The notes under the pieces were generated by a model, which ran no database searches, was not told where the DNA came from, and was given only the letters and a program-made list of their open reading frames with translations. Of a stretch of 64,000 nucleotides of DNA, positions 5,458 to 53,559 are shown piece after piece. The position numbers were made by a program, and so were the translations under genes. The stretch covers positions 65,062 to 129,061 of the forward strand of contig JAUWMI010000003.1 in NCBI GenBank assembly GCA_030613245.1, given 5' to 3'. How positions within the stretch are numbered: position 1 is the first letter of the stretch; each line of letters opens with the position of its first letter. This stretch comes from Candidatus Sumerlaeota bacterium. GTDB taxonomy: Bacteria; Sumerlaeota; Sumerlaeia; MWCT01; JAUWMI01.

Positions 5458-5523
5458 CCTTCGGGAAAATCCTCATGTAATCAAATGTCAGGGCGTTTAG
5501 TTAAACGCCCCTACAGACTTATG

Positions 5524-8489: not shown

Positions 8490-10601
8490 TTGGCAGACAG
8501 GAAGGAGCTGAACTTCATGGCCATGACACCGTCCGAACCTGGCATCAGGCGAATGCAGATATGGCTGGTTGTCTTCTTCATTTGTTTTTATGGGCTCTTC
8601 TTTTCCGGTGCCTTTTATTCGAGCGACGAAGTGCTGATGGGACTGGTGACCAAGAACATCGTCGAGCATGGAAAACTCACGTTTGAAGAGACTTACGGCC
8701 AGACTTCAACAGGCTATGGAGTGGGGCAATCGCTTGTCGGCATACCGTTTTACCTGCTTGACCGACTGCTCAAGCGCATAGAGCCCACCCTGGTTCAAGC
8801 CGACGTTGGTTTTCTGCCCCTGACCAATGTGGTGATTATCACCCTGCTGTGTCTTTATTTTTTCAGACTCGTTCTCTTGTTAGTGGGAGATACAGGTGTA
8901 GCGCTGGCGAGCGCGCTGGTGCTGGGGTGCGCGACACTTGCGCTGCCTTACTCACAGACTTTTTTCTCTGAACCACTGAGTGCCCTGTGCTTTCTAGGTG
9001 CGTTCTATTACCTTGTGGCCGGCACTCGATCTCAGCAGAGGGACCTGTACGCAAAGGCCGGACTCTTTTTCGCTTTCGGCATATTGACGAAATTCTCGGC
9101 AATTCTTTTCCTGCCGCTCTATCTGCTTTTTTATATTGGCAATGTGCGACAGCAATCATCAGCGGATAGACGCATCCGCGCTGGTGTTCTCTGCTGGTTA
9201 ATCATTCCCGCGCTCCTGGCAATGATTGTTACCGGGTGTATCAACTACGGGCTGCGCGGATCGTTCTTTAAGACGGCTTATGAGGGATCGGACTTCACTA
9301 CAAATATTCTCACAGGCGCATACGGGTCGCTCGTGAGTGTTGGGCGAGGTCTGTTTATCTACAATCCTGTGCTCCTGGTCAGTCTCTTGTTTTTCCCAAG
9401 GTTCTTCCGGCGCGAGCGCCTGATCAGCCTCTTCGCGCTTCTCTTCTTCCTGCTCCAGCTCTACCTTTACGGTAAATTCTGGACGTGGCACGCAGGATGG
9501 ACGCTGGGCTCGCGCTTTCTTCTTGCTTCGATCCCGTTTTTTCTTCTTCCACTGAGCATTGGGTTGAAAGAGGCCGATGCTCAAACTCCGCTCCGGTGGC
9601 TGTTCGTGTGGGTCATAGTGGGAGTGAGCATTCTGGTGCAGCTGTTGAACGCCGTGGTGAATTCTATTGCGTACAATAACGAAATCTGGGGCTTGTTGCC
9701 GGGAGAGAATGCGTTTCTCTTCATCCCGCAGGTATCGTCGCTGGCAGGCGCGTGGTACCTGATCGGGGATGGGAAGATTCAGCTCTGGCTGTATCGGTTG
9801 ATCGCGGGGCAATTTCATTGGGTGCTCGCACTTTTTTACGTACTGTGCGTGGTGGGCCTCGGGTTCAGCGGGTCAGTGCTGAGGCGGTTGCGTGGCTGGC
9901 CGCAATTTAGGATTGTCGGGCTGCGGGATGTGTGTCGCGACTTTTTCCGGTTAAATAGATGGGTGCCGATCTGGTTGGTGCTCTTTGTTATTTGCGCTGC
10001 TGGGGTAAGAATTTTCCAGGGACCGCGAGGCCTGGTGAAGGAACATAGGAAGGGAGCTGCGGCGCAGGAAGTGACTCTGGACAAACGGTTGCGCTTTAGC
10101 AGCCCGCAAAGCAGCGGCTCTGAGGAATCCAGGCATTGGTCAGGGTATCTTGAAGCGCCGATAACTGGCACGTACGAGTTCTTTATGAAGGTTAAGGGCA
10201 CATACTCTGTTTCTTTGAATAATACCCAGCTTTTTGTGAACATAAAGGAAATCCCACAGCATCTACCCAGAGCATCCATAGAGCTTCAGCAGGGAATGTA
10301 TCCGCTCACGTTTCAGTATCAGCCGCATCCAGGCGAGAATGGATTGATGTACGTATACTGGACGATCCCGGGTGGCGGTTATTACGTGCAGCCGATACCC
10401 GGGAGGTATCTCTATCCCGAGCGTCCGACTACTCTCGAGCGAATCTGCACACGGCTGTGGCGCTATCTCTGGCTGATCGCGCTGGTGGGCGTGCTAGCGC
10501 CGGTGTTGCTCGCCACTCGCTATAGGAAAGAGTCGTGTCCACGGAATTCTGATGCGGCGGTGTCCATCACACGAAGCACTGGAGAAGATGGCAATGGCTG
10601 A
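8490..10601 (+). CDS. GT-C fold membrane glycosyltransferase (ArnT/PMT-like), 12 or more TM, with C-terminal PA14 domain
   Basis: N-terminal ~450 aa are polytopic with PMT_2-like motifs (GLVTKNIVEHGKLTFEETYGQ...). C-terminal GYLEAPITGTYEFFMKVKGTYSVSLNN...YVYWTIPGGGYYVQPIPGRYLYPE is PA14-like. It sits between oppB-like and oppC-like genes. Confidence 0.6.
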   Translation: MADRKELNFMAMTPSEPGIRRMQIWLVVFFICFYGLFFSGAFYSSDEVLMGLVTKNIVEHGKLTFEETYGQTSTGYGVGQSLVGIPFYLLDRLLKRIEPTLVQADVGFLPLTNVVIITLLCLYFFRLVLLLVGDTGVALASALVLGCATLALPYSQTFFSEPLSALCFLGAFYYLVAGTRSQQRDLYAKAGLFFAFGILTKFSAILFLPLYLLFYIGNVRQQSSADRRIRAGVLCWLIIPALLAMIVTGCINYGLRGSFFKTAYEGSDFTTNILTGAYGSLVSVGRGLFIYNPVLLVSLLFFPRFFRRERLISLFALLFFLLQLYLYGKFWTWHAGWTLGSRFLLASIPFFLLPLSIGLKEADAQTPLRWLFVWVIVGVSILVQLLNAVVNSIAYNNEIWGLLPGENAFLFIPQVSSLAGAWYLIGDGKIQLWLYRLIAGQFHWVLALFYVLCVVGLGFSGSVLRRLRGWPQFRIVGLRDVCRDFFRLNRWVPIWLVLFVICAAGVRIFQGPRGLVKEHRKGAAAQEVTLDKRLRFSSPQSSGSEESRHWSGYLEAPITGTYEFFMKVKGTYSVSLNNTQLFVNIKEIPQHLPRASIELQQGMYPLTFQYQPHPGENGLMYVYWTIPGGGYYVQPIPGRYLYPERPTTLERICTRLWRYLWLIALVGVLAPVLLATRYRKESCPRNSDAAVSITRSTGEDGNG

Positions 10602-11442
10602 GATTTCGCTATGGAGATCTGCAGCGCGACGGCTCTGCCGTAATCCTATGGCTGTGGTGGGCGGCTGCATTGTGCTGTTTCTGATTGGAGCGGCAATTTT
10701 TGGGCCCTGGATTTCACCCTATTCGTATTATGAGAATGACTATGAGCATACTAATGAGGGCCCGAGCTGGAGTCACTGGTTTGGGACTGATTATCTAGGG
10801 CGTGATCAGCTGACGCGGGTGCTGTACGGGGCGCGCATCTCTCTTGCAGTCGGCGTGGTGGCAAGCCTGATCAGCGTGGTGATTGGCGTTACGTTCGGTG
10901 GGATTGCTGGCTACGTAGGTGGTCGCACAGACGCAGTGATGATGCGGATTGTGGACATCTTTTATGGCATTCCACTGATTCTCTTTGTCATCCTGCTCAT
11001 GGTGGTGTTCCAGCCGGGGTTAAAAAATATCTTCCTTGCCCTGGGATTTACATACTGGCTTGCGATGGCGCGCATTGTGCGCGGCCAGGTGCTTAGCCTG
11101 AAAGCGCAGGATTTCGTTATGGCTGAACGCGCTTTGGGCGCATCGCACACCCGGATCATCTTTCGGCATATCATCAGCAATACTCTTGGCCCGATAATCG
11201 TAACGCTGACCCTGAGCATCCCGGAAGCGATCTTTGCCGAATCGTTTCTGAGCTACATTGGCCTTGGGGTTTCGGCACCACTGGCAAGCTGGGGCACACT
11301 GGCCGCGGATGCGACGAGTGGGATTCGTGCGTATCCGTACATGCTCTTCTTCCCGGCAGCGGCGATTAGCATTTCCATGCTGGCGTTCAATTTTCTGGGC
11401 GATGGGCTGCGGGATGCACTCGATCCGCGACACATCCGCTGA
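10594..11442 (+). CDS. ABC transporter permease (OppC/DppC-like)
   Basis: MAEISLWRSAARRL...; N-terminal oligopeptide-permease extension plus BPD_transp_1 region. The start was chosen for SD spacing (GGAGAAG). Confidence 0.8.
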   Translation: MAEISLWRSAARRLCRNPMAVVGGCIVLFLIGAAIFGPWISPYSYYENDYEHTNEGPSWSHWFGTDYLGRDQLTRVLYGARISLAVGVVASLISVVIGVTFGGIAGYVGGRTDAVMMRIVDIFYGIPLILFVILLMVVFQPGLKNIFLALGFTYWLAMARIVRGQVLSLKAQDFVMAERALGASHTRIIFRHIISNTLGPIIVTLTLSIPEAIFAESFLSYIGLGVSAPLASWGTLAADATSGIRAYPYMLFFPAAAISISMLAFNFLGDGLRDALDPRHIR

Positions 11443-11550
11443 GCAGCGCGAACCTGCGCCCGTATGAATATTACCTGGGGACACGTTGCGACGCGCTCCT
11501 ACTGCATAGCAAGCCCGATGTAGCAACACAAATTCGATGAGGCATAGTGA

Positions 11551-13830
11551 ATGAGACATTTTGTTGGCGAGGCTATTCTGGCATGTCTGCTAATCGCTTT
11601 GGTTATTCCTGCGCTCGTCTTACCCTGGTCGCTCATTGATGATGCGCTCTATTTCTTTGAAAGTCATCGTCTACTTCTTCAGCTTGGCCTCACTTCCCCT
11701 ATCACGCATCTTGACCTTTCCGCCTATGCGCAACCGCACAATCCGTGGGTAGTAAGCCGTCTTATTGGTGCTGTTGAACAGCTGATCGCCGGAGGAACCG
11801 TATGGTTGTATCATGTCTTTAGGTTGGTAAATTTTCTCATGTGTGTGGCGCTTCTGTATTTGATTGTCTTCCAGATATCCCGCGATCAGCGTGCAGCCCG
11901 GCTGGGTGTGCTGCTGTTCGCGCTCTTTTCTCCGATCCATTATAGCAGTGATTGCCAGGCCTACCTGGCGAACTGGTATCGGCTGCATACGACAGATTCG
12001 GTGCTGGTGCCCTTTTATCTGCTGATGGTATTTTTGCTTGTGCAGATCTTAAAAAGAAGCATTGCGGTGCGGACTGTGCAAGGCAGCGATGTACGAATAG
12101 GCATCGCTGCGTTAGGTCTACTCTTCCTGGCTGTGTTTGTTAAGCAGACTATCGTGGCCGTTCCGATTGCCATGGTGATCTTGTGTGTGGTGCTGGTTGC
12201 AACGCGCCAGAAAAGGCCGGTTTGCGTCTTCTGGGGCATCATGACTGCAGCAGGCATCGTCGTGGTTGCACTTGGCATGTTGATCATGCGTGTTGCGATC
12301 ACGGTTGGGGATGTCTCCTATATCGAAGAGTATTCGTTTACAAGCCGACAGATCAGCGAGGGTTTCAGCAAATATCTGTCGTACCTTATCGTGGGTATGG
12401 GTCCGCTATTCTACGTCTGCCTCGGCTCATTTGTGTATCGGTTGATCAAGAGTGTGATACAGAAGACGAGGCTGTCGGTTGTGCAGATTGGTCAGTTGTT
12501 TTTCCTCGCCCTGGCGCTGTGTGGATTGTTGATTTATACTCCATGGCCGCACTTTTTGCCGCGCTATATGCCAATTATGGTAGCGCCACTGGCAGCGTTC
12601 ATGGGAGTGGAAGGTCTGGCATTGTGGCGGGAGTGTCAGTTGGTGTTTCAGCAAATTCGGACGAGCACAGGAATCTGGCTCGGAGTTGGGGCAGTGGTTC
12701 TGGTGCTTTTTCTCGGGTTGATCTGCCTGCCTTTTGCAGGGAAAGCCGTTTGTTTCCTTCTGCTGGCAAGTGTCGTAGTGGGGCTGGTGGCTGTTGTGCC
12801 ACGCGCGGTGTCATGGCCCCAGCGCCTACGGGGACTCCTTGCAACAACGGTAGCCGTGGTGTTGTTTATGGCTGTAGGCGCATTCCTCCTGATGGGACTC
12901 ATGGCGAATATTCATTTCATCAGAAACTATACGGCCAGCGAGAATGTAAACGCGCTAATGGTAGAAGAGCTGGCAGCGCATCTGCCCGCGCGCGGGGATC
13001 TTTTTCTTATGTTGCCAATGGGTTCAGAATTGGGCGGTTCAACAGATCTTCTTTTGAAGCTTTTTCACGGCAAGCCAGAGGTAAATTCGGCGTATCTTCA
13101 ACCAAACATGGATGAGCCGATTCCTGCAGGGGCGCTGCTGCTCTATCACGCCGAGCATTCACCTGTCTTGCTTCAGGGCGGCCATAAACTTACTGTGGAT
13201 CAGCGCTCAGATGTCCGCAGTTTACTTGGGAGTTTCATTTCCACAGGATCAGCATTTGGACAGACATTTGTTACCGGGCCCAAAACGGACTATCTTGCAC
13301 GGATAGTGGTACTGCTAGACAATAGCTATATGGATCCGTCAGAAAAGGTGATGCTCACCCTGTGGGACAGTCCGGAAAAACGACGCACGCTTGGTGTCTC
13401 CACTCTTGAAGGGGCCGAGCGCCCGGGACAGAATCCAGATCTAGTCAGCTTTGCCTTTGCTGAACCGGTTCCAGTGCAGCCCAATAACTCGTATTATTTT
13501 GAGCTGACGTATCAGGGAAGGCACGGGTTGCCGGGACGCTACACGCTCTTTACGCCGGGTGACGTGTATAAACATGGCAGGGCGTACTTCGGAGGTGCGC
13601 CGCAAAAGCTAGACATAATTTTCACCACCTGTGCTGGTTGGCGAAAACCAATGGACGTAGTATGGGAAGAGCGCGAGCGAGTTGTTACCACAGTAATGGA
13701 GCCGTGGCCTCGAGTGTTGAAAAGGGCTGCACGCTGGGGTTTGCTTGAGCCGCGGTATCGTCTGCTTCGTAAAGCTCAGGCCGAGTACGGGTGGACGATC
13801 TATGAGGCGCGGGAGTCATTTACCATGTAA
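11551..13830 (+). CDS. Polytopic membrane protein, probable GT-C family glycosyltransferase with ~350-aa C-terminal extracytoplasmic domain
   Basis: Many TM helices. N-terminal DDALYF loop motif typical of ArnT/PMT-like enzymes. No ATPase genes follow the opp-like permeases. Confidence 0.45.
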   Translation: MRHFVGEAILACLLIALVIPALVLPWSLIDDALYFFESHRLLLQLGLTSPITHLDLSAYAQPHNPWVVSRLIGAVEQLIAGGTVWLYHVFRLVNFLMCVALLYLIVFQISRDQRAARLGVLLFALFSPIHYSSDCQAYLANWYRLHTTDSVLVPFYLLMVFLLVQILKRSIAVRTVQGSDVRIGIAALGLLFLAVFVKQTIVAVPIAMVILCVVLVATRQKRPVCVFWGIMTAAGIVVVALGMLIMRVAITVGDVSYIEEYSFTSRQISEGFSKYLSYLIVGMGPLFYVCLGSFVYRLIKSVIQKTRLSVVQIGQLFFLALALCGLLIYTPWPHFLPRYMPIMVAPLAAFMGVEGLALWRECQLVFQQIRTSTGIWLGVGAVVLVLFLGLICLPFAGKAVCFLLLASVVVGLVAVVPRAVSWPQRLRGLLATTVAVVLFMAVGAFLLMGLMANIHFIRNYTASENVNALMVEELAAHLPARGDLFLMLPMGSELGGSTDLLLKLFHGKPEVNSAYLQPNMDEPIPAGALLLYHAEHSPVLLQGGHKLTVDQRSDVRSLLGSFISTGSAFGQTFVTGPKTDYLARIVVLLDNSYMDPSEKVMLTLWDSPEKRRTLGVSTLEGAERPGQNPDLVSFAFAEPVPVQPNNSYYFELTYQGRHGLPGRYTLFTPGDVYKHGRAYFGGAPQKLDIIFTTCAGWRKPMDVVWEERERVVTTVMEPWPRVLKRAARWGLLEPRYRLLRKAQAEYGWTIYEARESFTM

Positions 13831-13923
13831 GGACGAGAGACGGAACACTTTTCATGCTTGCTATTGATTGTGACCTTGGCTAATGTGGGGATAAAGTATG
13901 TACAAAAAGAGAGGAGAAAATTG

Positions 13924-15684
13924 ATGAGATTGCGAAAAGTTGTTTATGTGTTATTGCTTAGCGTGGCAGTGGGCGTATGGAGCGTGCCGATCTGGGCCCA
14001 GCCGCAAACAGGAGTAAAGTACGTGGTCTGCGAGCTCAGCGGGCCGGTCAATGAGAAGGCGGACATCTATAGTTTTATTTATCCGCGCTACTACACCGTG
14101 AAGGAGTACCTCGACCTCTTTGCCAGGGCGAAGACAGATGCTGACGTTCGCGGTATTATTCTCAAAGTTCAGTTTCCAGAACTGGGCTGGGCAAAGATCC
14201 AGCAGTTGCGCCGCGCAATTGCAGACTTTCGTGAATCAGGAAAGAAGGTGTACGCCTTCCTGGAGGTTGAATCGCTGGGCGGGTATCTGGTGGCATCGGC
14301 CTGCGACCGGATTGTGCTGGCACCATCGGGTATGCTACTCATCGTTGGCTTGCGCGCAGATATCTATTATTTGAAAGGCCTCTTATCAAAGCTCGGCATT
14401 GAGGCGGACATGCTGCACATTGGGAAGTATAAGACCGGAGCGGAAACTATGGCCCGTAGCTCAATGTCGGAGGAAATGCGTGAAGTGCTGAATTCACTAC
14501 TGGATGAGCTGTACGATCAGATGGCGACGATGATCGGCGAGGGTAGGAATCTGACGCCGGAACGCGTCAAAGCGATTGTGGATCAAGGGCCGTTTACGCC
14601 GACTGAAGCCAGGAGCAATAATCTGATTGACGTCGTCGGATACAAAGATGACTTTTTGCAGGATCTGGAAACTTCTTATGGGCAGAAGATCGAGCTGGTG
14701 CGCGACTATGGTAAGGAAAAACCAGCGATGGAGCAGATGTCATTCTTCAATATCTTCACGCTATTTCAGAAGCCCGAACGTGCAGCACCTGAAGTGGGCA
14801 AGAAGAAAATCGCGCTGGTCTATGCGGTGGGGCCTGTTCTGCCAGGCTCCGGAGAAGATTATCCGTTTGCTGAGAATCTGATTGCGGCGGATGATCTGAT
14901 CAGTGATCTCCAGGAATGTCAGAAGGACGAGCAGATAAAAGCCATTGTGATGCGAGTGGACAGTCCGGGCGGATCAGCACTAGCATCGGATCTGATCTGG
15001 AAGGCAGTCAATGAGGTAAAAAAGGAGAAGCCGGTCGTGGTCTCGATGTCCGATGTTGCAGGCTCCGGAGGCTACTACATCTCGATGGCCGCACATAAGA
15101 TTGTCGCGGAGCCTGGAACAATTACGGGCGCAATTGGAGTAATTGGTGGCAAATTCATCTTGGGAGAGCTATACGACAAGATTGGGGTGAACAAGGAGAG
15201 CCTTAGCCGTGGTCAGCGCAGCCACCTTTTTTCTGAGTCCTCCAGGTTCTCAGACGACGAGCGGCAGGTGATGCGTAAGCTTTTGCGGCATATTTATGAT
15301 ATGTTCGTGGCGAAGGCGGCAGAGTCGCGTAATATGTCGGTTGCGGAGATGGATGAAGTAGCGCAGGGGCGAGCATGGCTAGGCACGCAGGCGAAAGACC
15401 GGGGACTCGTGGATGAGATCGGCGGATTGGAGACCGCCATGGAGATTGCTAAGGAACTGGCGCACATTGCTAAGGACGAAGAGATCAGCGTAGTGGTGTA
15501 TCCAAAGCAACTCGGACTTTTTGAATTTATTCAGAAGATGTTTGGCGGGCAGGCCGCCGTGACACAGCTGCTTCCCCTGAATGCGGCTGAGATTCAGCTC
15601 ATACGTCAGGCCACGGTCTTCTTTCCCTTGATGCGACGAGAAAAAGCTCTGATGTTGATGCCTTACACACTTCGCTGGGAATAG
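13924..15684 (+). CDS. sppA: Signal peptide peptidase SppA, 67K type (tandem S49 domains)
   Basis: ATG at 13924 after GAGAGGAGAAA. N-terminal TM. Two ClpP/crotonase-like S49 domains (…SPGGSALASD…). Confidence 0.8.
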   Translation: MRLRKVVYVLLLSVAVGVWSVPIWAQPQTGVKYVVCELSGPVNEKADIYSFIYPRYYTVKEYLDLFARAKTDADVRGIILKVQFPELGWAKIQQLRRAIADFRESGKKVYAFLEVESLGGYLVASACDRIVLAPSGMLLIVGLRADIYYLKGLLSKLGIEADMLHIGKYKTGAETMARSSMSEEMREVLNSLLDELYDQMATMIGEGRNLTPERVKAIVDQGPFTPTEARSNNLIDVVGYKDDFLQDLETSYGQKIELVRDYGKEKPAMEQMSFFNIFTLFQKPERAAPEVGKKKIALVYAVGPVLPGSGEDYPFAENLIAADDLISDLQECQKDEQIKAIVMRVDSPGGSALASDLIWKAVNEVKKEKPVVVSMSDVAGSGGYYISMAAHKIVAEPGTITGAIGVIGGKFILGELYDKIGVNKESLSRGQRSHLFSESSRFSDDERQVMRKLLRHIYDMFVAKAAESRNMSVAEMDEVAQGRAWLGTQAKDRGLVDEIGGLETAMEIAKELAHIAKDEEISVVVYPKQLGLFEFIQKMFGGQAAVTQLLPLNAAEIQLIRQATVFFPLMRREKALMLMPYTLRWE

Positions 15685-15754
15685 GAGAGCGGTCTGATTC
15701 AGGCTTGTAGGGCAGACACGTGAAACGAGTCTTCCGGGTAGAAGGCCTGGTCTA

Positions 15755-17023
15755 TTAGTATAAAAGATACTGCTGGCGTTTCTTCATAAACTTCTCCACA
15801 TCCGCTTTCCAGCTCTGAATGATCTCCTGAGCCGGCTTTCCTGCCTGTAAAGCACGCCGTACTGCATCGGTGCCCCATACCAGATCGAACATCTTCATGC
15901 GAGACGTCATCTCTGACCCTCCAAGAATCTGTTGATCGGGGTAGAGTTTGAGCAGAACTTCCATCATGTGTACCGCCACTTCAAGGGGGCGAACTGCATC
16001 GAAGTTTGTGATGTGGATCTGAACGCCCGCGCACTGTTGCTCCTCGAATTTATAGTATCTTGGAATAAAGAAGGTGGGCCGGAAATACACGCCGGGCAGA
16101 TGCCGGGCATTGAGCACCTCCGCCAGCTTAAATGCATCTATCCAGGGAGCGCCAATAAGCTCGAATGGCAGCGTGGTTCCTACACCCTCGCACACGGTTT
16201 GCATTTCGCCGAGTGTGCCGGTAATGGCAATATAGAAGGCGCTTTCCGGCCGAGGAATTCCCATTGATGTAGCCACCCATGGCAGGCCCGTGTGCCACCA
16301 TTTCATCGTTCGCTTCCACCCCTCCATTTTCACCACGTGCAGCTTGCAATTGATCTTGAATTCCTTATTGAAGAACATGGCGATCTCGCCCGGAGTCATG
16401 CCGTAGAGATAGGCTATTGGGTACTTGCCAACAAAGGAGGAGTATGCCGAGTCGTCGAGAATGTTGCCGTCAACGAGCTCACCGCCGAGAGGATTTGGCC
16501 GGTCAAGCACGATGAAGGGTATCTTTTTTTCAGCCGCAGCTTCCATTGCGTTGGCCATGGTGTAGATGAACGTATAGGTGCGATTGCCAATGTCCTGAAT
16601 GTCGTAGATGAGAAGGTCGAGGCCGTCGAGCCATTCGGGCAAAGGCTTCCGAGTCTTTCCATAGAGGCTGTACGCCTTGAGTCCGGTGAGCGGATCAATT
16701 ACGGCGGGGATGTACTTGCCTGCAAAATACTGACCCCAGACCCCGTGTTCCGGACCAAACAGTGCCACGAGCTGGCAGTCCGGGCTTTCGTGCAGGCGCT
16801 TGATGGTGGGCTGAAAGCGGCTGTTGATGCCGGTGGTATTTGTAATCAGGCCGATCTTTTTCCCACGAATGAGATCGAGATTTTTCTCAAACAGCATTTC
16901 GTTGCCGAGTTTCACGGCGGGCGTAGGATCTGGCACATGGGAAAGATCTGCATGCTGGCCGAACAGCGCTATCGGGCATGTGAATAGAACAATGGTAATC
17001 AGGGATTGGATGAGCTGTTTCAT
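15755..17023 (-). CDS. DUF1343 family protein (exo-beta-N-acetylmuramidase NamZ-like), secreted
   Basis: Signal peptide. KIGLITNTTGINS and LFGPEHG motifs are characteristic of DUF1343/YbbC. Confidence 0.6.
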   Translation of the reverse strand: MKQLIQSLITIVLFTCPIALFGQHADLSHVPDPTPAVKLGNEMLFEKNLDLIRGKKIGLITNTTGINSRFQPTIKRLHESPDCQLVALFGPEHGVWGQYFAGKYIPAVIDPLTGLKAYSLYGKTRKPLPEWLDGLDLLIYDIQDIGNRTYTFIYTMANAMEAAAEKKIPFIVLDRPNPLGGELVDGNILDDSAYSSFVGKYPIAYLYGMTPGEIAMFFNKEFKINCKLHVVKMEGWKRTMKWWHTGLPWVATSMGIPRPESAFYIAITGTLGEMQTVCEGVGTTLPFELIGAPWIDAFKLAEVLNARHLPGVYFRPTFFIPRYYKFEEQQCAGVQIHITNFDAVRPLEVAVHMMEVLLKLYPDQQILGGSEMTSRMKMFDLVWGTDAVRRALQAGKPAQEIIQSWKADVEKFMKKRQQYLLY

Positions 17024-17301
17024 AAGTACGCCTCCTTGTCGATATTCTTTTCACTCTATCGAGTGACATCCATGTGACAGTGTTGCTTCATAGCCACCGG
17101 GTGTTTGCCAGAATCAGACAAATTGCACATTATTCCGCTCAGTGGGTATCAGGGTAGTTTGTATCAAGCGGTGAAGAAAAGGGTCAAGCAGGAATTCAAA
17201 AAAATAGCGGGCGAGCTGAATTTTCATGCTCGCCCGCTCGGGCTGTGTCTTATTGTCCCCATCATGCTATCGCGCCTGGAAATTTCTAAATCGCTGCACT
17301 T

Positions 17302-18207
17302 CTATTCGTACAGAGTCCAGCGCGGATCCGCAGCAGTCACATCTCCTGACGGTTCAAGCTCGTATGGAGGCAAATAGACTTCAATGTCATCAACGTAAAG
17401 TGGAGCCCCGCTCGGCCCAATACTAATCATATCCGCATAGGCGGCGTAAAACCCAACGCCTCCTGCAGTCAGGAGAGCACTCCCCTCACCGGCACCAGGG
17501 TTAGTTAAGTAATCCATCCGGATAAGAGGTGGAGTACTCGCGTTTATGTCGTTAACAATCTCCTCGTACGACTTATCCACATAGGCGTCAACACGGTTGG
17601 TGACGTCAAGATCTGTGCCTGAAAAGACCAGGGTCAGGCGATACCACCCTTGGTTTGGCAGTGTTTGCTGAACCCATTCTTCTGGCGCGTTCATTGCTGG
17701 AGTATCAAAGTTTTTACGCATGCCCCAACCGGGAAAAACCAGACTCCAGCCAGCCGGGTCTATTGGATAATAGCCGAGTTTTACTCCACTGCCCCAGTGT
17801 GGGGCGTCTATGTTAGTGCGTCCCATGAGGCACGTGTCGCCACGATGCGTTGGATCGGTACTGATGCACACAAACATCTGGATGGAGACCATGTACTCGG
17901 TCCAGGTATTCTCGCCACCAACCAGGCCCCTGGTTCCGTGATTGAGCGACACGACATCGCAGCGCAACGCATAATTGTCTCCACTGGGATTTGGGAAAAC
18001 GAGTCCAGCTGGATAATAATCGTCTGAACTGACGATATTGAAAGTTCCCGCGTCGCCACCCACAAGCAGATCCGTCCAGGTCTGATCATATGTGCCGCCG
18101 CTAAAGTGCTCTTCCCAAACAGGCTGGTATCCCGCCAGGGCAATTGACGCGCTGCAAAGCATAACAAGCATCAAAAGCAGCGGCCGTTGTGCAAATGTGT
18201 GTTTCAC
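17302..18207 (-). CDS. Secreted protein, truncated paralog (N-domain only) of the 3631..5457 protein
   Basis: GTG start. Signal peptide MKHTFAQRPLLLMLVMLCSASIALA. About 70-75% aa identity to the N-domain of 3631..5457. Ends ...YVDDIEVYLPPYELEPSGDVTAADPRWTLYE* and is followed by a perfect terminator (GCGGGCGAGC-loop-GCTCGCCCGC-T7). Confidence 0.7.
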   Translation of the reverse strand: MKHTFAQRPLLLMLVMLCSASIALAGYQPVWEEHFSGGTYDQTWTDLLVGGDAGTFNIVSSDDYYPAGLVFPNPSGDNYALRCDVVSLNHGTRGLVGGENTWTEYMVSIQMFVCISTDPTHRGDTCLMGRTNIDAPHWGSGVKLGYYPIDPAGWSLVFPGWGMRKNFDTPAMNAPEEWVQQTLPNQGWYRLTLVFSGTDLDVTNRVDAYVDKSYEEIVNDINASTPPLIRMDYLTNPGAGEGSALLTAGGVGFYAAYADMISIGPSGAPLYVDDIEVYLPPYELEPSGDVTAADPRWTLYE

Positions 18208-19068
18208 GCTGTCACCTCCCTATTTGTTGTATTGTGTTTTCCTCTTCTGTAAACTCCTAGAGGAACTCAAGAAACCATATTCTGACTAGCAGACTTAAGA
18301 TTTTTGTGCAAGGGAAATCTTGCCTTTTCCTGGGTAGTTACCGCATTTTTTGCAAAGCGCCCCTTAAGAGTCCTTGCGTAGATATCAGGGATTCATTTGT
18401 ACATAGTTGAAGATGGTCATATAAATGACATTTTGGCTAGTTTATAAATTGTTCGAAACGGAAGAGAGAAGAAGTCAGGAATCAAAAGGAGGCTCCTTAA
18501 GGCAAGCGGTATGAGGCTTATAGTGCTGGACCATAATCCTCAAGCGTGAATTCTTACGCCAATAAGGTAATGGCAGAAACCGGTGTTGATATTTCAACGC
18601 ATCATTCAAAGAAGGTTTGAGATTGTTGTGGCAAAGAAAAAATAATTTGAGTAATCGTTATAGTCATAGTGGCACTGTCCCTGATAGCGTGTTTGTGGTT
18701 CAGGCTTCGCTCCCGGCCAAATCGCCTTAGGCTTCTTCAGATACACGCAAACCGTTATAATTTTTATGCCATGTTGCGCCGAGGGAAATGGCTATTGCTT
18801 TTCGCATAAATAAACAAAGCCGCTGAAGGCCTTATTCTTGTGCGAATGCTTGGTGTTAAACTGTGCCATTCAACGTGGCACGGGCATCACGCCACAGGCG
18901 CATTTTCAACTTGCCAGTGTAGATTCATCCGCCTGGGCGGATGCCACACATCGAACAAAAAGAGATTCTTGGGATTCCATAGTTGGTAGTTGTAGGGGCG
19001 TTTAATTAAACGCCCCTAACATGCTGTACCGTTATCTATACAAATCTCGATAAGATAGGACGCGGCTT

Positions 19069-19986
19069 ATGAATAGAGCCCAATTGAGCATCGTTACCGG
19101 GGCTTTTGGGTATACTGGTAAGTACATAACCCGGCGGCTTCTCGAAATGGGCGAAAGGGTGAAAACCATCACCGGCCACCCTAACAGGCCGAATCCTTTT
19201 GGTGGCGAGGTAAGTGCGGCGTCATTTAATTTCGACAAACCCGCAGAATTGGTCAAGAGTCTTGAAGGAGCCGCAACTCTGTACAACACCTACTGGATCC
19301 GCTTCACCTACAAGCGAGTCACCTTTGATCAAGCCATCCAGAACACTCTTACTCTGTTTAAAGCAGCCCGGGAGGCTGGGGTACAGAGGGTTGTCCATTT
19401 CAGCATTACCAATCCCAGTGAGGACTCGCCACTGCCTTATTTCAGGGGGAAGGCGATTCTGGAAAAGGCGCTTATTGATTCCGGCTTGTCTTACGCTATC
19501 ATCAGGCCAGCCGTGATATTCGGTCTCGAGGATATTCTGATCAATAACATCGCCTGGTTTCTACGGAAGTTTCCGATATTAACTGTACCCGGCTCTGGGA
19601 AATATCAACTTCAACCGGTCTACGTTGAGGATGTGGCGGACATAGCTGTTAGCGCAGGTCATCGGAATAAAAACAGCATCATTGATGCAGTCGGCCCGGA
19701 AACATACTCCTACAATGATTTGGTCAAACTCATTGCGGAGACAATAGGCAGCACGGCTCGCATCATTCACGTGCCACCACGCCTGGCGCTTGCTCTTGCC
19801 AAGGTTCTGGGTTTCATCGTGCGCGATATGGTATTGACGCGGGAAGAAGTCGACGGCCTGATGCAAGGCCTTCTGGTATCCAGGGATCCACCAACCGGGA
19901 AAACGTATTTAAGCCAATGGCTAAAGCAGAACGCAGATATAATTGGACGTCAGTATGCTTCCGAAGTGGATCGGCATTACCGATGA
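19069..19986 (+). CDS. NAD(P)-binding NmrA/SDR-like epimerase/reductase
   Basis: Rossmann motif TGAFGYTG at the N-terminus. ~305 aa, NmrA-like. Confidence 0.6.
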   Translation: MNRAQLSIVTGAFGYTGKYITRRLLEMGERVKTITGHPNRPNPFGGEVSAASFNFDKPAELVKSLEGAATLYNTYWIRFTYKRVTFDQAIQNTLTLFKAAREAGVQRVVHFSITNPSEDSPLPYFRGKAILEKALIDSGLSYAIIRPAVIFGLEDILINNIAWFLRKFPILTVPGSGKYQLQPVYVEDVADIAVSAGHRNKNSIIDAVGPETYSYNDLVKLIAETIGSTARIIHVPPRLALALAKVLGFIVRDMVLTREEVDGLMQGLLVSRDPPTGKTYLSQWLKQNADIIGRQYASEVDRHYR

Positions 19987-20002
19987 GAAGGCGCCCACAC
20001 AA
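19688..20002 (+). repeat. 315-bp direct repeat, left copy (3' end of the NmrA-like gene)
   Basis: About 93% identical to 21612..21925. Together they flank a low-GC 1.6-kb segment. Confidence 0.8.
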
Positions 20003-20180
20003 GGTGGCATAACAGTGTGCTGCCAGGTCTGGGGATCTTCGGTGCCGTCCTAGCAACTAGGAGGGTTTGTTGGGTGGATTTGTTTTTTTTAACTGAAGGG
20101 CCATCATGGATGCATAGACTGATCGCTGTACTGCGGAGTTCGCCAGCCCGTACTCTTCAGATAACATAAGGAGATATAAC

Positions 20181-21410
20181 ATGAAAACCGTCAATCTTAT
20201 GATTTCCCTTCTTCTCTTATCTATCATGGCATCGGCTACTTTTTCAGCTGCTAAAGCTGAATTTGTGATTACTCAGCAAGATGAGGATGATATGATTAAG
20301 TTTGCAGAAGAACTTCGCGAATGGGCGCATTCGAAGTATGAACCTGATCTTTCTTCTTCGGTTGCTCATTTTATTCCTTTTGATGAGTTACAGAAATGCG
20401 ATGCATATAACAAGCTTATTGAATATGACTGGAAACTTGTTCCCTACCAGATTAGAAAAATTCAAATCGAAAATGAATTAAGGGTTATTATAGGTTCGGC
20501 ATTAGCTAATAGGGCCATTGAAAGTCTCGAAGATCTGTATAATTATCAAGGAGAAAAATTGCCAGGATTGTCCGAGGAGATTGCTATGCGGTTTCCTGGA
20601 AGATTGCTTTACCAAACCACAGTTGGCAAAGAGGTTTGTCAGAAGCTAGGGAGAAAGCCGGATCGTGCCGGGTTCTCGTGGATTGAGTGGTGGGGGGAGA
20701 ACAAAGACAGATTTAAATTCAAGACTAAGAAGCGCTTTAAGATCGGCACCCAATATAAATATTTCAATCACCCTCATGTTTCGACAGTACAACATGGGGG
20801 CCTTTTACATTTAGAGGCCGTTAATGCAACTTATCGGCAGATCATAGAGCGTGCAGCAGCTGAATTAGGAGTGAATGTGTTTATAGGGGAGCAGATAGAC
20901 ATAGACGTTATTTGTACGGTAAGAATGAGATCGGTAACCTTTGAAGAATTTGCATATCTCATTGGGCGAACGGTCCATGTAGGAGGGTTCAAATATTACA
21001 AGGATGGCAATAAGTATCATTTTGGAAGTGAGGTTGAGGCTAAGCCACGGGAAATCCTTGATGGTTGGGGTATAATGATGAATAGAACGGTGTTCTACGA
21101 AGGAGATACGATACCTGTGACGGTTATAACAAGAGGCACTGGAGAGTTAGTTGATCCATTAGATCGTGTATTTTATGACTATGGGAGTTTCAAAATTACG
21201 ACTAATAACGGCACAATAATTAGAGATTATAACATTCAAAGGAAAACAAAACCAACGCTGGAACTGATAAATAGAGAAAAAGATTGCACCAAAATTGATC
21301 TCAATTTGAGCAACTATTGTCAACTTCCGCCGGGCGAATACAATGTTAGGTTAAAGTATCTTTCGCATGAAACCCCATCTATTGCAATTGAGATTTATAG
21401 AAGAAAGTAA
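20181..21410 (+). CDS. Hypothetical secreted protein (409 aa) encoded on the low-GC insert
   Basis: Signal peptide MKTVNLMISLLLLSIMASATFSAAKA. AT-rich codon usage unlike the neighbours. No recognisable domain. Confidence 0.55.
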   Translation: MKTVNLMISLLLLSIMASATFSAAKAEFVITQQDEDDMIKFAEELREWAHSKYEPDLSSSVAHFIPFDELQKCDAYNKLIEYDWKLVPYQIRKIQIENELRVIIGSALANRAIESLEDLYNYQGEKLPGLSEEIAMRFPGRLLYQTTVGKEVCQKLGRKPDRAGFSWIEWWGENKDRFKFKTKKRFKIGTQYKYFNHPHVSTVQHGGLLHLEAVNATYRQIIERAAAELGVNVFIGEQIDIDVICTVRMRSVTFEEFAYLIGRTVHVGGFKYYKDGNKYHFGSEVEAKPREILDGWGIMMNRTVFYEGDTIPVTVITRGTGELVDPLDRVFYDYGSFKITTNNGTIIRDYNIQRKTKPTLELINREKDCTKIDLNLSNYCQLPPGEYNVRLKYLSHETPSIAIEIYRRK

Positions 21411-21611
21411 GGAGATTGACGCGCATCATCTAAGACGAGTTTTGTGGCTCAGTTCGTTTACCTAGATCGCGACTTTATCGATACTAAGAAAAGCCCCAAG
21501 CCCATGAGAAGCCAAGAAGCAAGTAGGGTCCTTGGTCAATCCTATGGCCAAAATGGAAGCTCAGGTAATGACCTGTTTGTCTAATTGGGTTAGCATCGAA
21601 AACTTGTAATA

Positions 21612-21925
21612 CAGGCGGCCCGGAAACATACTCCTATAATGATTTGGTCAGGCTCATTGCGGAGACAATAGGCAGCACGGCTCGCATCATTCACGTGCCG
21701 CCACGCCTGGCGCTCGCTCTTACCAGGATTCTTGATTTTATCGTGCGGGATGTCGTCTTGACGCGGGAAGAAATCGACGGCCTGATGCAAGGCCTTCTCG
21801 TATCCAGGGATCCACCAACCGGGAAAACGTATTTAAGCCAATGGCTAAAGCAGAACGCGGATATAATTGGACGTCAGTATGCTTCCGAAGTGGCTCAGCA
21901 TTACCGATGAGAAGGCGCCCACACA
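21612..21925 (+). pseudogene. Duplicated 3' fragment of the NmrA-like gene (right direct repeat; 88-aa in-frame remnant at 21644..21910)
   Basis: The remnant translates to ...LIAETIGSTARIIHVPPRLALAL...GRQYASEVAQHYR, about 90% identical to the C-terminus of 19069..19986. Confidence 0.75.
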
Positions 21926-21947
21926 ATCCGCCATAAAGGCGGGTCTC

Positions 21948-23558
21948 TCAGTTTGTCCTTCTTGAAATCCGCCGAATTGCCGCGTCAAGCACGGTATCCG
22001 TTTCACCGATAAAGTCAGTGGGCACTGGTTCCAGAAGAACATCCGGCTGAATGCCATTCCCATCGTAGAGTCTTCCGTTCGGGCGGAATGACGCCATCGA
22101 CGACAGATAAATGCTGATGAGGGAATTGCGCAGTCGGTATTTGACCCTGCAGCCGCTCCCACCCCCACTGGGCAGACCCATCAAGGTGACGTTCTTCCAG
22201 CCCTTGAAAGCCCCGAGGAAGATATCGCAGGCGCTGAAATTCCATCGGTCCATTAAAATCACCACTGGCTTGTCGTAGTGAAAGTATCCCTGGTCGCGAA
22301 AAGGACTGATGACAAAATAGTGCCATTCCCTGAACTCTCCTTCCGGAAGCACCCACTCCGGCTCAAAGGTCGAGGCAAACTGCTTGATGACCGCTCGCTC
22401 GGCCTCGGACCAGCGCGGTGAAGAGGCTGGATAGAGGTAGCGATCTTCGAAGGCCTCTTTCCTGTCTTTTACACCAAGGCGGTATGCAGCGACATTGACG
22501 ACACGAGGTAAGTCGTTTTCGGCCAGGAAAAACGGAAAGAGCACTCGCAGCGGTGCGCGGCTACCGCCGGAGTTTGTTCTGATGTCAATGATAAGGCCAT
22601 CCGTCTTCGCAAAACGGTTCATCGTTTCGACAAGATCATCGAGGAATTCGGGTTCTGCCAGCATAAATACGAACCGCAGATAACCTATATTCCCCGGCAA
22701 GATGCGACTTTCAACCCGAATGTCTTTCCACTGCTTAATGGGATTTTTATTTCGCGGCCAGAAACCGTAAACAGGTCCCTTCTTCACCAACGGCAATTCA
22801 ATTTGCTTGCTTGCTGCACCATCGGCTGATTCCAGCTCTACCTGTATGGCCCCTAGCTTGTTTATGCCGAGTTCCTTTCGCAGACACTCGACGTACCGGA
22901 GGTTTCTTATCGAATGGTACCGTACATACTGGGGCGAGCCCTGGGCCACCAACCTTCCGGCAGCCTCCAGCCACGCCTCCATCGGCACACCATCCATGCC
23001 TCTAAGAAATGGAAAATCCGAGTCAACGAAACCTGATCGGTCCGGCTTAAAAGCCACCAGTCGTCCGCCTGATTCTTCAACCAGAAACGGCAAAAACTCT
23101 GTACATAAAGTTTTTAGATGAACGAATGAACTTGAGATCTTACTATGTCCGTCTCCGAACAAGGCAATGAATTTCGTCAGTTGGTAGCCGAAGTCGCCCA
23201 AGCTGATGCCATCGCCCAGGGCACCCCTGATGCTGTCCAGAGATCCCCGATAATCCACCCCTTTAAGGTCCCGGTAGGAATATCTATTCTCAATAAGCCA
23301 TTCAAGTTCATCCAGATCTTTCTCTGCCTCTCTTCGCGAGAGAAGCGTTGTGTAGACGGGATGGCGGGAAGAAGAACCTATTCGGCCAGTCAGATACTTG
23401 TCTTTTTCACGGACGTAATTGTCGTGCTTTCGATGTACTCGCCCTGTGATGCTGTGGCAAGCCGTCAACAAGCACATCAACGCCAGTGCCATTATGAAGC
23501 ATCGCACGATGCTGGCAAACGTACCCGAGGGATGCCTCTTACCCGAAATAGAATCCAT
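21948..23558 (-). CDS. S41 family peptidase (C-terminal processing/tail-specific protease-like), lipoprotein
   Basis: Lipobox LLTAC after MDSISGKRHPSGTFASIVRCFIMALALMC. S41 motif IDIRTNSGGS. Confidence 0.6.
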   Translation of the reverse strand: MDSISGKRHPSGTFASIVRCFIMALALMCLLTACHSITGRVHRKHDNYVREKDKYLTGRIGSSSRHPVYTTLLSRREAEKDLDELEWLIENRYSYRDLKGVDYRGSLDSIRGALGDGISLGDFGYQLTKFIALFGDGHSKISSSFVHLKTLCTEFLPFLVEESGGRLVAFKPDRSGFVDSDFPFLRGMDGVPMEAWLEAAGRLVAQGSPQYVRYHSIRNLRYVECLRKELGINKLGAIQVELESADGAASKQIELPLVKKGPVYGFWPRNKNPIKQWKDIRVESRILPGNIGYLRFVFMLAEPEFLDDLVETMNRFAKTDGLIIDIRTNSGGSRAPLRVLFPFFLAENDLPRVVNVAAYRLGVKDRKEAFEDRYLYPASSPRWSEAERAVIKQFASTFEPEWVLPEGEFREWHYFVISPFRDQGYFHYDKPVVILMDRWNFSACDIFLGAFKGWKNVTLMGLPSGGGSGCRVKYRLRNSLISIYLSSMASFRPNGRLYDGNGIQPDVLLEPVPTDFIGETDTVLDAAIRRISRRTN

Positions 23559-23719
23559 TACGCGAGTCTCCTTTCGTAGATCCAGGTATAACGATGCGTA
23601 CAAATCGGGCCATGACCCATGACGTCACAAGATCAAAAGCATTAGGTCAGCAATAATAAATAACCGATCCCGGTCCCTAAAGGCATTTCCCGGTAAAGTA
23701 CCGGATTGTAATGGCGTGT

Positions 23720-24223
23720 CTATTTTTTCTTTGTAGGCTTCCAGCAGGGCTGATTTTTAGGTACGAATGGTGGATTCTGGCGGCGTTCCTTACCACTGCG
23801 GCGGTCACGCCCAAAGCGGCGATTCTTGCTGGTGATGAGGTCAACCTTTCTCCGCCGACTAACACCAGAGCGGCGTTCCAATCCCGAGCGCCGCTCACCA
23901 AGGGGGGATTCATCTGCCGCCGGCTCTTTTGATTCGGAGGCTTTGGCAGCGCCAGTACGCTCGAGGAATTCTTTTTGACCATGTAGCCGCAAAAATTGGG
24001 TGAGCACGTTGTGTTGCTTTTGTGCGTCGTGGGGTATGTGGAGAGCGAGCTTCCTCAACAGGGCGCGTAAGCCACCTTTTTTCAGGGCATGTTCGGAGAT
24101 CATTGCGACAACGGTATCGCCGTACTTCGAGTAACGCTTGTGGAGTTCGTCAACCAGCTGCTGCTTCTCTTGCAACCGTTTGGCTTCGCCTTTCAGCTTT
24201 TTCGACAGGTCATCTCTTACCAT
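23720..24223 (-). CDS. Hypothetical highly basic protein with RRSG/ERR repeats at the C-terminus
   Basis: 167 aa. C-terminus ...GERRSGLERRSGVSRRRKVDLITSKNRRFGRDRRSGKERRQNPP... Codon usage is gene-like. Confidence 0.45.
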   Translation of the reverse strand: MVRDDLSKKLKGEAKRLQEKQQLVDELHKRYSKYGDTVVAMISEHALKKGGLRALLRKLALHIPHDAQKQHNVLTQFLRLHGQKEFLERTGAAKASESKEPAADESPLGERRSGLERRSGVSRRRKVDLITSKNRRFGRDRRSGKERRQNPPFVPKNQPCWKPTKKK

Positions 24224-24812
24224 GAGCTGAGTTCACGTTCCTTTCTCGCAAGGTTGCAGCAGTCACTGGAGAGGATATCTCTGCATATTGCCTGAGGAGA
24301 CAAGACAAGTGTCATTTTTGCATCAGGGCCTTGTGGCCGCGCTTGACGATTCGGACCTGCAAGATGAAGAAAATTTTTCCCGCTGGCGCGTGTTCAGAAC
24401 GACTAAAACTTAACGTCCGCTTGCCCGAAATTGTCAACATTTTTTCTCTACAGACAATTATACAACTCGCCCTGTGATATATTCCTCGGCCAGTTTTTGC
24501 CCTGGCTTGGTAAAAAGTTGCTTCCAGCCTTGTGCCTTATCTAACTAAAGACTACCACAGAGATTCTTAAAAAAGCATAAATTGCAAAATGAAAATTGCA
24601 AATATCAAATTTTAAATTTGCATTTTGCAATTTGCAATTGCGTGCTCTGTGGTTCCACTACAGGCGGTCACCAATTTCATTCAACACAATTAGGCCACTA
24701 TGCATTTTCCCTCTGACCGGAGAAATCATTTTGACAGCACTCTCTGTATTTAGTAGATGGAGAACACGCGTATCGTGAAAGATTGTACGTCTTATCTAAA
24801 GGAGACAGAGAA

Positions 24813-53556: not shown

Positions 53557-53559
53557 CCC

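Follow-up and report, generated by a model that had tools for sequence, protein, structure and literature searches.

Our analysis of a 64-kb stretch of DNA (hereafter the window) from an uncultured bacterial lineage near Candidatus Sumerlaeota revealed an intact nmrA gene, of a housekeeping-type reductase, followed by an AT-rich insert with a single gene for a secreted protein, here called the cargo, and then by a displaced second copy of the end of nmrA itself (Table 1). On balance, this structure is probably the scar of a recombination-mediated gene gain that proceeded without mobile machinery of its own. A segment of a host gene, repeated in direct orientation, brackets non-homologous DNA, and the two copies appear to trace to a donor and a recipient allele rather than to copying within one genome; both features are those of a scar left by homologous recombination.

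Table 1. Features at and around the 3' end of nmrA, with positions in the window.
Feature	Position	Strand	Basis
Further insertion private to the window (256 bp, 46% GC), ending 18 bp before the nmrA start codon	18795..19050	.	
nmrA, intact NmrA/SDR-like gene (atypical short-chain dehydrogenase, YbjT-like), 305 aa	19069..19986	+	ORF, Pfam
Repeat copy A: final 98 codons of nmrA, stop codon and 16 nt	19692..20002	+	alignment
Segment between the copies, 1,613 bp, 41.2% GC (window, 51.5%)	20003..21615		
Flank-1, downstream of copy A, 49% GC	20003..20180	+	alignment, GC
Cargo gene, encoding a secreted 409-aa protein whose family is uncharacterised	20181..21410	+	ORF, signal peptide, AlphaFold
Tail, non-coding DNA 3' of the cargo, 45% GC, no ORF	21411..21608	+	
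Putative illegitimate joint, tail to gene remnant	21609..21616	.	per-base comparison, alignment
Repeat copy B: displaced nmrA 3' end	21616..21926	+	alignment, ORF list
Native intergenic spacer, nmrA to the convergent S41 gene	21927..21947	.	read from sequence
S41 peptidase gene, 551 aa, convergent, native right neighbour of nmrA	21948..23603	-	Pfam Peptidase_S41

The ORF of nmrA matches the Pfam families Epimerase, NmrA and NAD_binding_10; its product is identical to P0173, which is encoded on a 133-kb NCBI contig, and the gene shares 92-94% nucleotide identity with its orthologues in lineages L002, L082, L173 and L174. An earlier note on this DNA had placed a repeat of about 93% identity at 19688..20002 and 21612..21925 and an 88-aa in-frame gene remnant in its second copy. 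The identity and the remnant both stand, the latter as an ORF at 21644-21910 within copy B, but the right end had been set one base short of 21926. The repeat is ungapped, with an offset of 1,924 bp, and was first called at 19685-19984 and 21609-21908 with 93% identity; alignment and per-base comparison gave clean boundaries enclosing 311 bp, 291 of them identical (93.6%). Counted from 19691, which is itself a mismatch, the copies agree at 291 of 312 positions, and five of the 7 nt ahead of the clean repeat (19685-19691 and 21609-21615) match as well. The longest identical stretch between the copies measures 59 bp (19876-19934). A repeat of such length and identity cannot have arisen by chance.

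Three related lineages, two of them represented by Candidatus Sumerlaeota-related contigs and the third by a short metagenome contig, carry the empty site that the earlier note had proposed to look for: in L002/L096, L082 and L174, one copy of nmrA is joined straight to the sequence that follows copy B in the window. In L174, an intact S41 gene adjoins nmrA across the same spacer and at the same stop-to-stop distance of 37 bp, and synteny with the window extends as far as YmdB; copy B, the spacer and the S41 gene together are 94.3% identical to L174 at the nucleotide level. The spacer contains a hairpin, CCGCC-ATAAA-GGCGG, at 21928-21942. The ancestral arrangement is shown in this way: nmrA and the S41 peptidase gene run towards each other, separated by 37 bp of spacer. 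Together with the repeats, the empty sites bear out the earlier view of an insertion at the 3' end of a gene with a displaced remnant. Could the empty sites instead be deletion products, left by loss through recombination between A and B? We rejected this possibility, since L002 resembles B in its 5' part and A in its middle, opposite to the pattern expected of a deletion product. The DNA next to the 3' end of nmrA is variable: each of five close lineages has a downstream state of its own, and the breakpoints differ as well.

Copies A and B are two distinct natural alleles of the nmrA end. Of the 21 positions that distinguish them, 16 are found in both states among other lineages, two are private to A and three to B. 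The copy A allele, with its LAKVLGFIVRDMV tract, is also present in P0172, L002 and L174, and that of copy B, whose divergent middle bears the LTRILDFIVRDVV tract, is common to P0170/L173 and P0171. A tract of seven sites in copy B is shared with L173 and with the more distant lineage L003. Synonymous and non-synonymous changes between the copies fall at 10 and 11 positions, respectively (a rough dN/dS estimate of about 0.36), a ratio that fits divergence while both copies belonged to functional genes. The two copies and the four orthologues are roughly equidistant, with 17-33 differences per 312 bp, and the alleles are mosaic, so that neither the resident copy nor the position of the homologous exchange can be read from them; divergence profiles along nmrA, searched for the homologous crossover, have no discontinuity.

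The DNA between the copies stands out in composition, in agreement with the AT-richer segment described earlier. The kilobase 20001-21000 has the lowest GC content of all 64 in the window, and the cargo ORF, at 39.4% GC and 36.8% GC3, deviates from the 38 other ORFs (mean 52.5 +/- 2.0% GC and 59.6 +/- 5.2% GC3) with z = -6.5 for GC and -4.4 for GC3. The composition of the cargo is foreign and that of flank-1 is host-like. Flank-1 begins with some 60 nt (20003-20061) that share homology with the DNA downstream of nmrA in L003: the local alignment scores 19 against 7.9 +/- 1.2 in shuffled sequences, none of 500 shuffles reaches 19, and the alignment keeps the same register after the stop codon, while the flank of copy B has no such similarity. 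The similarity amounts to just 67% over 55 nt, which we count against our preferred explanation. At its 3' end, flank-1 supplies the ribosome-binding site, AAGGAG, of the 409-aa gene. The tail resembles none of the loci fetched and presumably arrived together with the cargo. Homology to nmrA ends at 21609-21616, where a short and imperfect motif, AT-CAG-C, is held in common with 19685-19692 (5/7 matches); the joint was presumably made by illegitimate recombination.

The cargo is the single gene of the insert and encodes, as the earlier note had described it, a signal-peptide protein of no recognisable domain; searches against Pfam, NCBIfam, PADLOC, PHROGs and PDB sequences returned no match. 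A Sec signal peptide (MKTVNLMISLLLLSIMASATFSAAKA, followed by EF) can be read at the N-terminus, and beyond it lie a helical domain, an alpha/beta domain and a C-terminal Ig-like beta-sandwich. The AlphaFold model has a pLDDT of 90.5, and its fold matches are weak beta-sandwich ones alone, with TMq (the TM-score normalised to the query) of 0.19 at most. The remote-homologue search suggested in the note yielded 45 relatives, none informatively named, the closest at 67% protein identity. Eight homologue loci lie in unrelated chromosomal contexts and have neither long flanking repeats nor gene-end duplications. Conversely, the cargo or a homologue of it was sought at about 160 nmrA loci and was absent from all of them.

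No integrase, recombinase or transposase domain was detected among 39 ORFs scanned across the window (38 of at least 200 aa and a 167-aa ORF at 23720-24223), which upholds the remark in the note that no integrase remains, and the window contains no tRNA. Insertion of an IS, a transposon or a MITE was rejected: the insert ends hold no inverted repeat pairs, and target-site duplications made by transposition are short, the 311-bp duplication being far longer. An attC site is a structured imperfect palindrome ending in GTTRRRY, and a CALIN is a cluster of such sites without an integron-integrase. Here, the tail (z = +0.36) and flank-1 (z = -0.08) fold no better than their shuffles, GTTRRRY occurs at chance frequency and away from the insert boundaries, and IntI is missing; an origin as an integron cassette or CALIN was likewise discarded. 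A scan for promoters and terminators gave counts inside the shuffle range. Outside the feature, an Rfam scan of 17-25 kb produced one sub-threshold match, to rliD at 24538-24634 (16.8 bits against a gathering score of 50), which is taken as chance.

We envisage the following course of events. A cell would have taken up DNA from a related donor lineage whose nmrA end differed by about 7%. The donor fragment would have comprised the 3' part of nmrA, the DNA downstream of nmrA in the donor, the AT-rich 409-aa gene, which may already have been foreign to the donor clade, and a tail of about 200 bp. One end of this fragment would be resolved by RecA-type homologous exchange within nmrA, and the other by a non-homologous joint at 21609-21616, with AT-CAG-C as microhomology, which abuts codon 208 of the resident gene. 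The chromosome could have undergone one crossover of the Campbell type with a circularised fragment carrying the gene-end segment, or a linear fragment could have entered by homology-facilitated illegitimate recombination (HFIR). Both routes would yield an identical product, namely an intact, possibly hybrid nmrA, then the cargo, and then the last 98 codons of the resident gene as a dead remnant, and functions encoded by an element would be unnecessary for either. With 311-bp repeats on both sides, the insert is now liable to be lost by homologous recombination. A donor locus with the order A-type nmrA, flank-1 and 409-aa gene was not found in our genome and metagenome scans, in which the clade is thinly sampled; a counterpart exists just for the first 60 nt beyond the gene, in L003. 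Against the model stand this missing donor, the 67% protein identity of the nearest cargo homologue, the mosaic alleles, the imperfect microhomology at the joint and the 256-bp insertion upstream of nmrA.

What precedents exist for such a structure? In E. coli, a single crossover with a circle bearing a gene-end fragment gave duplications of the lacZ end of 109-950 bp (PMC3240628). As in the window, the product is an intact gene, the inserted DNA and then a direct-repeat copy of the gene end; the length of our repeat lies within the reported range, and host recombination suffices. Unlike that system, ours is a natural event in an uncultured bacterium, with a circular intermediate that can only be presumed, and the exchange was homeologous, given the difference of about 6.5% between the copies. 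For T6SS effector-immunity and Rhs loci, an HFIR-type displacement has been put forward in which 3' remnants of genes stay behind (PMC5361080). HFIR, for which that paper cites de Vries & Wackernagel 2002 and Prudhomme et al. 2002, resembles our locus in being anchored by homology in one conserved gene and in a joint that here, too, is apparently non-homologous, with short microhomology. In the displacement model (PMC5361080), likewise, the newcomer comes to lie beside the conserved gene, with the former 3' end shifted downstream as a remnant, and the same argument is raised against duplication, namely that the alleles of one genome do not cluster. In contrast to those loci, the anchor here is an ordinary SDR/NmrA-type reductase and not a toxin gene, and a single cargo gene takes the place of an array of successive displacements. 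Import of a 1.9-kb piece of foreign DNA by homologous and illegitimate recombination, without an integrase of its own, is the most likely account of the locus, and the finding is real but ordinary. It provides a natural, documented case of gene gain through a homologous anchor and one putative illegitimate joint, complete with empty sites, two alleles and both junctions.

The earlier note had favoured site-specific integration, with the repeats as target-restoring attL and attR, and had considered a decayed integrative element; it also allowed for a recombination scar or a cargo cassette exchanged by recombination. In the site-specific reading, a tyrosine or serine recombinase would have acted on an attP that mimics the nmrA 3' end, and the element would later have lost its integrase or, as a CIME-like remnant, be mobilised in trans. 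Integrative elements that target the 3' ends of protein genes, and integrase-less, cis-mobilisable derivatives of them (CIMEs), are familiar from the streptococcal ICE literature, and our locus resembles them in its gene-end direct repeats, restored target gene, AT-rich cargo and empty sites in relatives. Target-derived repeats and an empty site fit recombination scars equally, however, and do not discriminate between the two. The locus departs from such elements in lacking any recombinase in 64 kb, in an insert of just 1.6 kb, and in a repeat that exceeds by several-fold the usual att identity block. In addition, the supposed element side of attL at 20003-20061 is chromosomal-type DNA, homologous to the sequence downstream of nmrA in L003, the copies are natural alleles, the cargo never recurs at the nmrA target, its homologues lack flanking repeats, and neighbouring lineages lose synteny at different points after nmrA. 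We regard site-specific integration as distinctly unlikely, and the idea of a decayed integrative element has no support either; the evidence favours the recombination scar that the note had named as its alternative. For genome scans, this carries a caution: AT-rich cargo framed by a duplicated gene end is not in itself a sign of an integrase-driven element.

How much DNA was imported? A larger block, 18795-21615 (2.8 kb), could have come in whole, running from an upstream spacer of foreign origin through an entire xenologous nmrA and flank-1 to the 409-aa gene and its tail. It would have replaced the promoter-proximal 640 bp of the resident nmrA, leaving copy B alone, and both of its joints would be non-homologous or lie in diverged spacers. 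The window-specific insertion upstream of nmrA, which begins the block, sits exactly at the upstream edge of nmrA conservation and is absent from L002, L082, L173 and L174; our minimal import model leaves it unexplained, and it may belong to the same imported block. Next to it, 17199-18794 is just 78.6% identical to L002, against 91-92% elsewhere. Yet this region is a gene for a secreted protein that evolves fast and has paralogues at 3.5-5.5 kb, and the 5' part of nmrA has diverged from its relatives by 5.0-7.7%, no more than the rest of the genome. The 256 bp do not resemble the DNA ahead of nmrA in L003, and in default of any supporting similarity we did not retain a tie to the cargo event; a 26-bp palindrome within them (18993-19018) is found again at 5491-5515, suggesting an independent small insertion native to this genome. 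Replacement of the whole block is therefore unlikely in our estimation, though it deserves some weight. It is very doubtful that the structure is an artefact of assembly or phasing, in which the chromosome would have the empty site and the insert with a hybrid repeat would belong to a circle or a co-occurring strain. The sample lineages are microdiverse, identity within the repeat extends to 59 bp, and the Logan contig L001, from a k-mer assembly of SRR12623517, ends within the repeat at either side and is compatible with either topology. On the other hand, this contig, 1,743 bp long and identical to 19940-21682 of the window, links variants specific to copy A through the insert to variants specific to copy B. 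The joints of copy A with flank-1 and of the tail with copy B are both real k-mer paths, so some molecule carries the rearranged nmrA fragment; a 1.9-kb circle without a replication gene would not persist, and variants at most 59 bp apart should be phasable by reads of 100-150 nt. We give almost no credence to a duplication of the gene end in place, followed by drift of the unused copy and a separate insertion of the 409-aa gene. The copies do lie close together and in direct orientation, but just five of their 21 differences are private, the states of the other 16 are seen elsewhere, the seven-site tract of copy B, L173 and L003 among them, and the right-hand flanks of A and B represent two distinct natural types.

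The cargo belongs to a widespread family of secreted proteins with a confidently predicted fold, which is AT-richer than its host in nine of nine genomes, with GC3 10-30 points under that of neighbouring genes, and whose position differs in every genome examined. A viral origin was considered and set aside, as there was no relative in IMG/VR, no PHROG match and, in BFVD, generic beta-sandwich matches alone; a role as defence-system cargo was dismissed after the PADLOC search. We speculate, as a highly improbable reading, that the 1,924-bp unit of repeat and insert is a minimal, integrase-less homing cassette. Such a unit may exit as a circle via its flanking gene-end repeats and may enter relatives by means of host RecA, with the nmrA end of about 311 bp as its homology arm. 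If this were true, the AT-richness of the family and its ever-different positions would reflect a hitch-hiking lifestyle. The family, compositionally foreign in each genome examined, may merit study in its own right.

A direct repeat of the 3' end of the NmrA/SDR-like gene (nmrA), its two copies starting 1,924 bp apart, was recovered by a repeat search of the window. Base-by-base comparison delimits a clean repeat of 311 bp at 93.6% identity, whose copy A belongs to the intact gene and whose copy B is a displaced remnant; counting from 19691, where the first position already mismatches, 291 of 312 positions match, and immediately 5' of the clean repeat 5 of 7 nucleotides agree. The factual statements made about this sequence in an earlier note were all borne out, save that copy B ends at 21926, not 21925. 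We conclude that the feature is real and that a recombination scar is a better reading of it than site-specific integration. A 1,743-bp contig from k-mer assembly of run SRR12623517 is identical to 19940-21682, connects, across the insert, variants specific to A with those specific to B, and ends precisely at the points where 31-mers become common to both copies. Mis-phasing of a chromosome with an empty site and an excised circle or second strain is conceivable because A and B are identical over up to 59 bp, their longest such stretch, and we consider it very improbable.

Features of the window, and sequence states following nmrA in the window and in close relatives (S41, convergent peptidase gene)
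Feature	Position	Description
nmrA ORF, 305 aa	19069-19986	Pfam matches Epimerase, NmrA, NAD_binding_10
Copy A	19692-20002	last 98 codons, stop codon and 16 nt of nmrA
Cargo ORF, 409 aa	20181-21410	sole ORF of the segment between the copies
Copy B	21616-21926	contains in-frame 88-aa ORF 21644-21910
Intergenic repeat copies	2389-2578, 5494-5683, 53550-53739; inverted 47664-47753	
Post-nmrA state, window		409-aa insert
Post-nmrA state, L174		S41 intact
Post-nmrA state, L002		S41 with internal 1.4-kb deletion
Post-nmrA state, L082		unrelated AT-rich sequence from the S41 stop codon onward
Post-nmrA state, L173		AT-rich sequence and lipoprotein gene, from ~27 nt past the nmrA stop

At the 21 sites where the two copies differ, comparison with five orthologues identified two private differences in A and three in B; at the remaining 16, both states are present in other lineages. 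The middle divergent tract of B (protein LTRILDFIVRDVV) is the allele of the homologues P0170 (locus L173) and P0171, and that of A (LAKVLGFIVRDMV) is the allele of P0172, L002 and L174. Overall, A, B and four close orthologues are roughly equidistant, with 17-33 differences per 312 bp. Substitutions between the copies occupy 10 synonymous and 11 non-synonymous positions, and the resulting dN/dS, roughly estimated at ~0.36, is too constrained for a copy drifting as a pseudogene. Duplication in place followed by decay is ruled out by this value together with the distribution of alleles in other lineages. These alignments show A and B to be different natural alleles, one gene end being derived from another lineage of the same clade.

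The direction of the event is given by relatives. Scanning one genome per species yielded L002, a Candidatus Sumerlaeota MAG that shares synteny with the window over 9955-24546 (~91% nucleotide identity), so the window most probably comes from a near relation of this MAG. In L002 a single nmrA copy passes directly into the sequence that borders copy B on the right (window 21927-22043), and 1,924 bp of the window are absent. The metagenome contig L082 has the same arrangement, and L096 represents the same organism as L002. The cleanest empty site is that of L174, a 74-kb JGI contig, where 37 bp of spacer separate nmrA from an intact convergent S41, with 94.3% identity to the window over B, spacer and S41 and a matching gene order beyond S41 as far as YmdB. 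Single-copy empty sites of the kind anticipated in the earlier note thus exist in L002/L096, L082 and L174, and indicate that nmrA converging on S41 is the ancestral state and that the window bears an insertion. Loss of the insert from relatives by recombination between A and B is unsupported, since in L002 the copy resembles B in its 5' part and A in the middle, opposite to the expected deletion product.

How did the second gene end arrive? The right flank of copy B is the one seen in L002, L082 and L174. To the right of A, 20003-20061 aligns in the same register with the nmrA-downstream sequence of L003, a more distant lineage (80% protein identity), with a score of 19 against 7.9 +/- 1.2 in shuffles, reached by 0 of 500; the copy-B flank has no such similarity to L003. 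Given this match and the host-like composition of the flank right of A (20003-20180; 49% GC), copy A and this flank together form one continuous stretch from the nmrA locus of a different haplotype and are not element DNA. Only at the left end of B does nmrA homology break off abruptly within the gene, and positions 21609-21616, with the imperfect microhomology AT-CAG-C, may represent a single non-homologous joint. A minimal account would require a single homologous exchange within nmrA plus a single illegitimate joint. A single crossover could integrate a circularised donor fragment, and experimental single-crossover products in E. coli carried gene-end duplications (109-950 bp) of the same kind as in the window (PMC3240628). 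Alternatively, a linear fragment could enter by homology-facilitated illegitimate recombination, a route proposed for displacement events at T6SS and Rhs loci in which 3' gene ends are left orphaned (PMC5361080). Both routes would yield the same product, and the scar is a further instance of an already known kind of event. The nmrA alleles are mosaic, no divergence step is visible along the gene, and genome and metagenome scans returned no donor with the nmrA-flank-409 arrangement. A second private insertion (256 bp), close upstream of nmrA, suggests as a variant that a larger block of 2.8 kb with the entire gene, then xenologous, was imported; nothing further supports this variant.

Site-specific integration bounded by attL and attR, the lead reading of the earlier note, fares less well than its second, the homologous-recombination scar: besides copy A and its flank not being element DNA, no machinery was found. 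No integrase, recombinase or transposase domain occurs in the 39 ORFs scanned across the window, which are all of ordinary chromosomal type (carbamoyl-phosphate synthase, ABC transporters, SppA, NamZ, cytochromes, hybrid-cluster protein, sensor kinases and others). The 64 kb contain no tRNA, and the insert has no terminal inverted repeats. An integron cassette is likewise unsupported, as the non-coding ends of the insert are no more strongly folded than shuffled sequences and GTTRRRY motifs are about as frequent as expected by chance. No cargo homologue was present in ~160 nmrA loci from genomes and metagenomes, and eight cargo homologue loci lie in eight unrelated chromosomal neighbourhoods, without mobile-element genes or duplicated gene ends.

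Five close lineages have five different states after nmrA, with varying breakpoints, which is more consistent with repeated recombination anchored in a conserved gene than with one defined att site. At its 3' end nmrA adjoins a variable spot where AT-rich genes for exported proteins accumulate, a minor lead. In L002, the closest relative (10947-11160, against window 22044-23467), the S41 deletion keeps both ends, fused out of frame, and ~358 bp (11149-11505) are missing in the window. Differing AT-rich DNA (38-39% GC) replaces the post-nmrA sequence in L173 (1151-1359) and L082 (1069-1138), and in L173 opens a gene whose product bears a lipoprotein signal peptide (MKRMISRISYVVLVSIVLAGC...).

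The segment between the copies (1,613 bp, 41.2% GC versus 51.5% for the window) is AT-richer, as previously noted, and holds the lowest-GC kilobase of all 64. The cargo ORF has 39.4% GC and 36.8% GC3 (z = -6.5 and -4.4 against 38 other window ORFs), and its 23-point GC3 deficit shows it to be foreign to this clade. Across the family, GC3 lies 10-30 points under that of neighbours in nine of nine genomes (L162-L171 and the window), independently of host GC (38-62%) and in a different chromosomal neighbourhood each time; low GC alone consequently gives no date for the event. A typical Sec signal peptide, as judged from the sequence, stands at the start of the protein, which has no match in Pfam, NCBIfam, PADLOC, PHROGs or PDB sequences; none of its 45 homologues (29-68% identity) bears an informative name. 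A confident AlphaFold model (pLDDT 90.5, pTM 0.86) comprises the signal peptide, a helical domain, an alpha/beta domain and a C-terminal beta-sandwich, and fold searches against PDB and viral models gave generic Ig-like or Wzt-C-like partial matches only (TMq <= 0.19). The fold makes a secreted or periplasmic binding protein the most likely identity of the cargo, whose uncharacterised family is a minor lead. In L168 (1-5151), the homologue P0018 lies between ORFs of 1,039 and 167 aa that have RHS-repeat-like sequence in common (direct repeats 927-1004 / 4698-4775); this homologue may have inserted into an Rhs-type locus.

Several other observations concern the surroundings. The 256-bp insertion (18795-19050), 18 bp before the nmrA start codon, is missing from L002, L082, L173 and L174; within it lies a perfect 26-bp palindrome (18993-19018, TAGGGGCGTTTAATTAAACGCCCCTA), present again at 5491-5515. 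An intergenic repeat family (~90-190 nt, 63-89% identity, at least 4 copies in 64 kb) may correspond to MITE-like or REP-like elements or to a family of small RNAs. The gene adjoining nmrA, for a 301-aa secreted protein (17302-18207), has inverted paralogous copies 14 kb away (3526-5457), with stretches of up to 357 nt at 89% and 112 nt at 96%; its 78.6% identity to the L002 orthologue, against 91-92% in the flanks, suggests gene conversion or fast evolution. A second low-GC patch (50323-52000; 44.6% at 51-52 kb), beside an FRG-domain gene (50323-51189, GC3 49%), may be another acquired segment. Downstream of S41, a highly basic 167-aa ORF (23720-24223, minus strand) with repeated RRSG.ERR motifs and no family match is conserved in L002 and L174.
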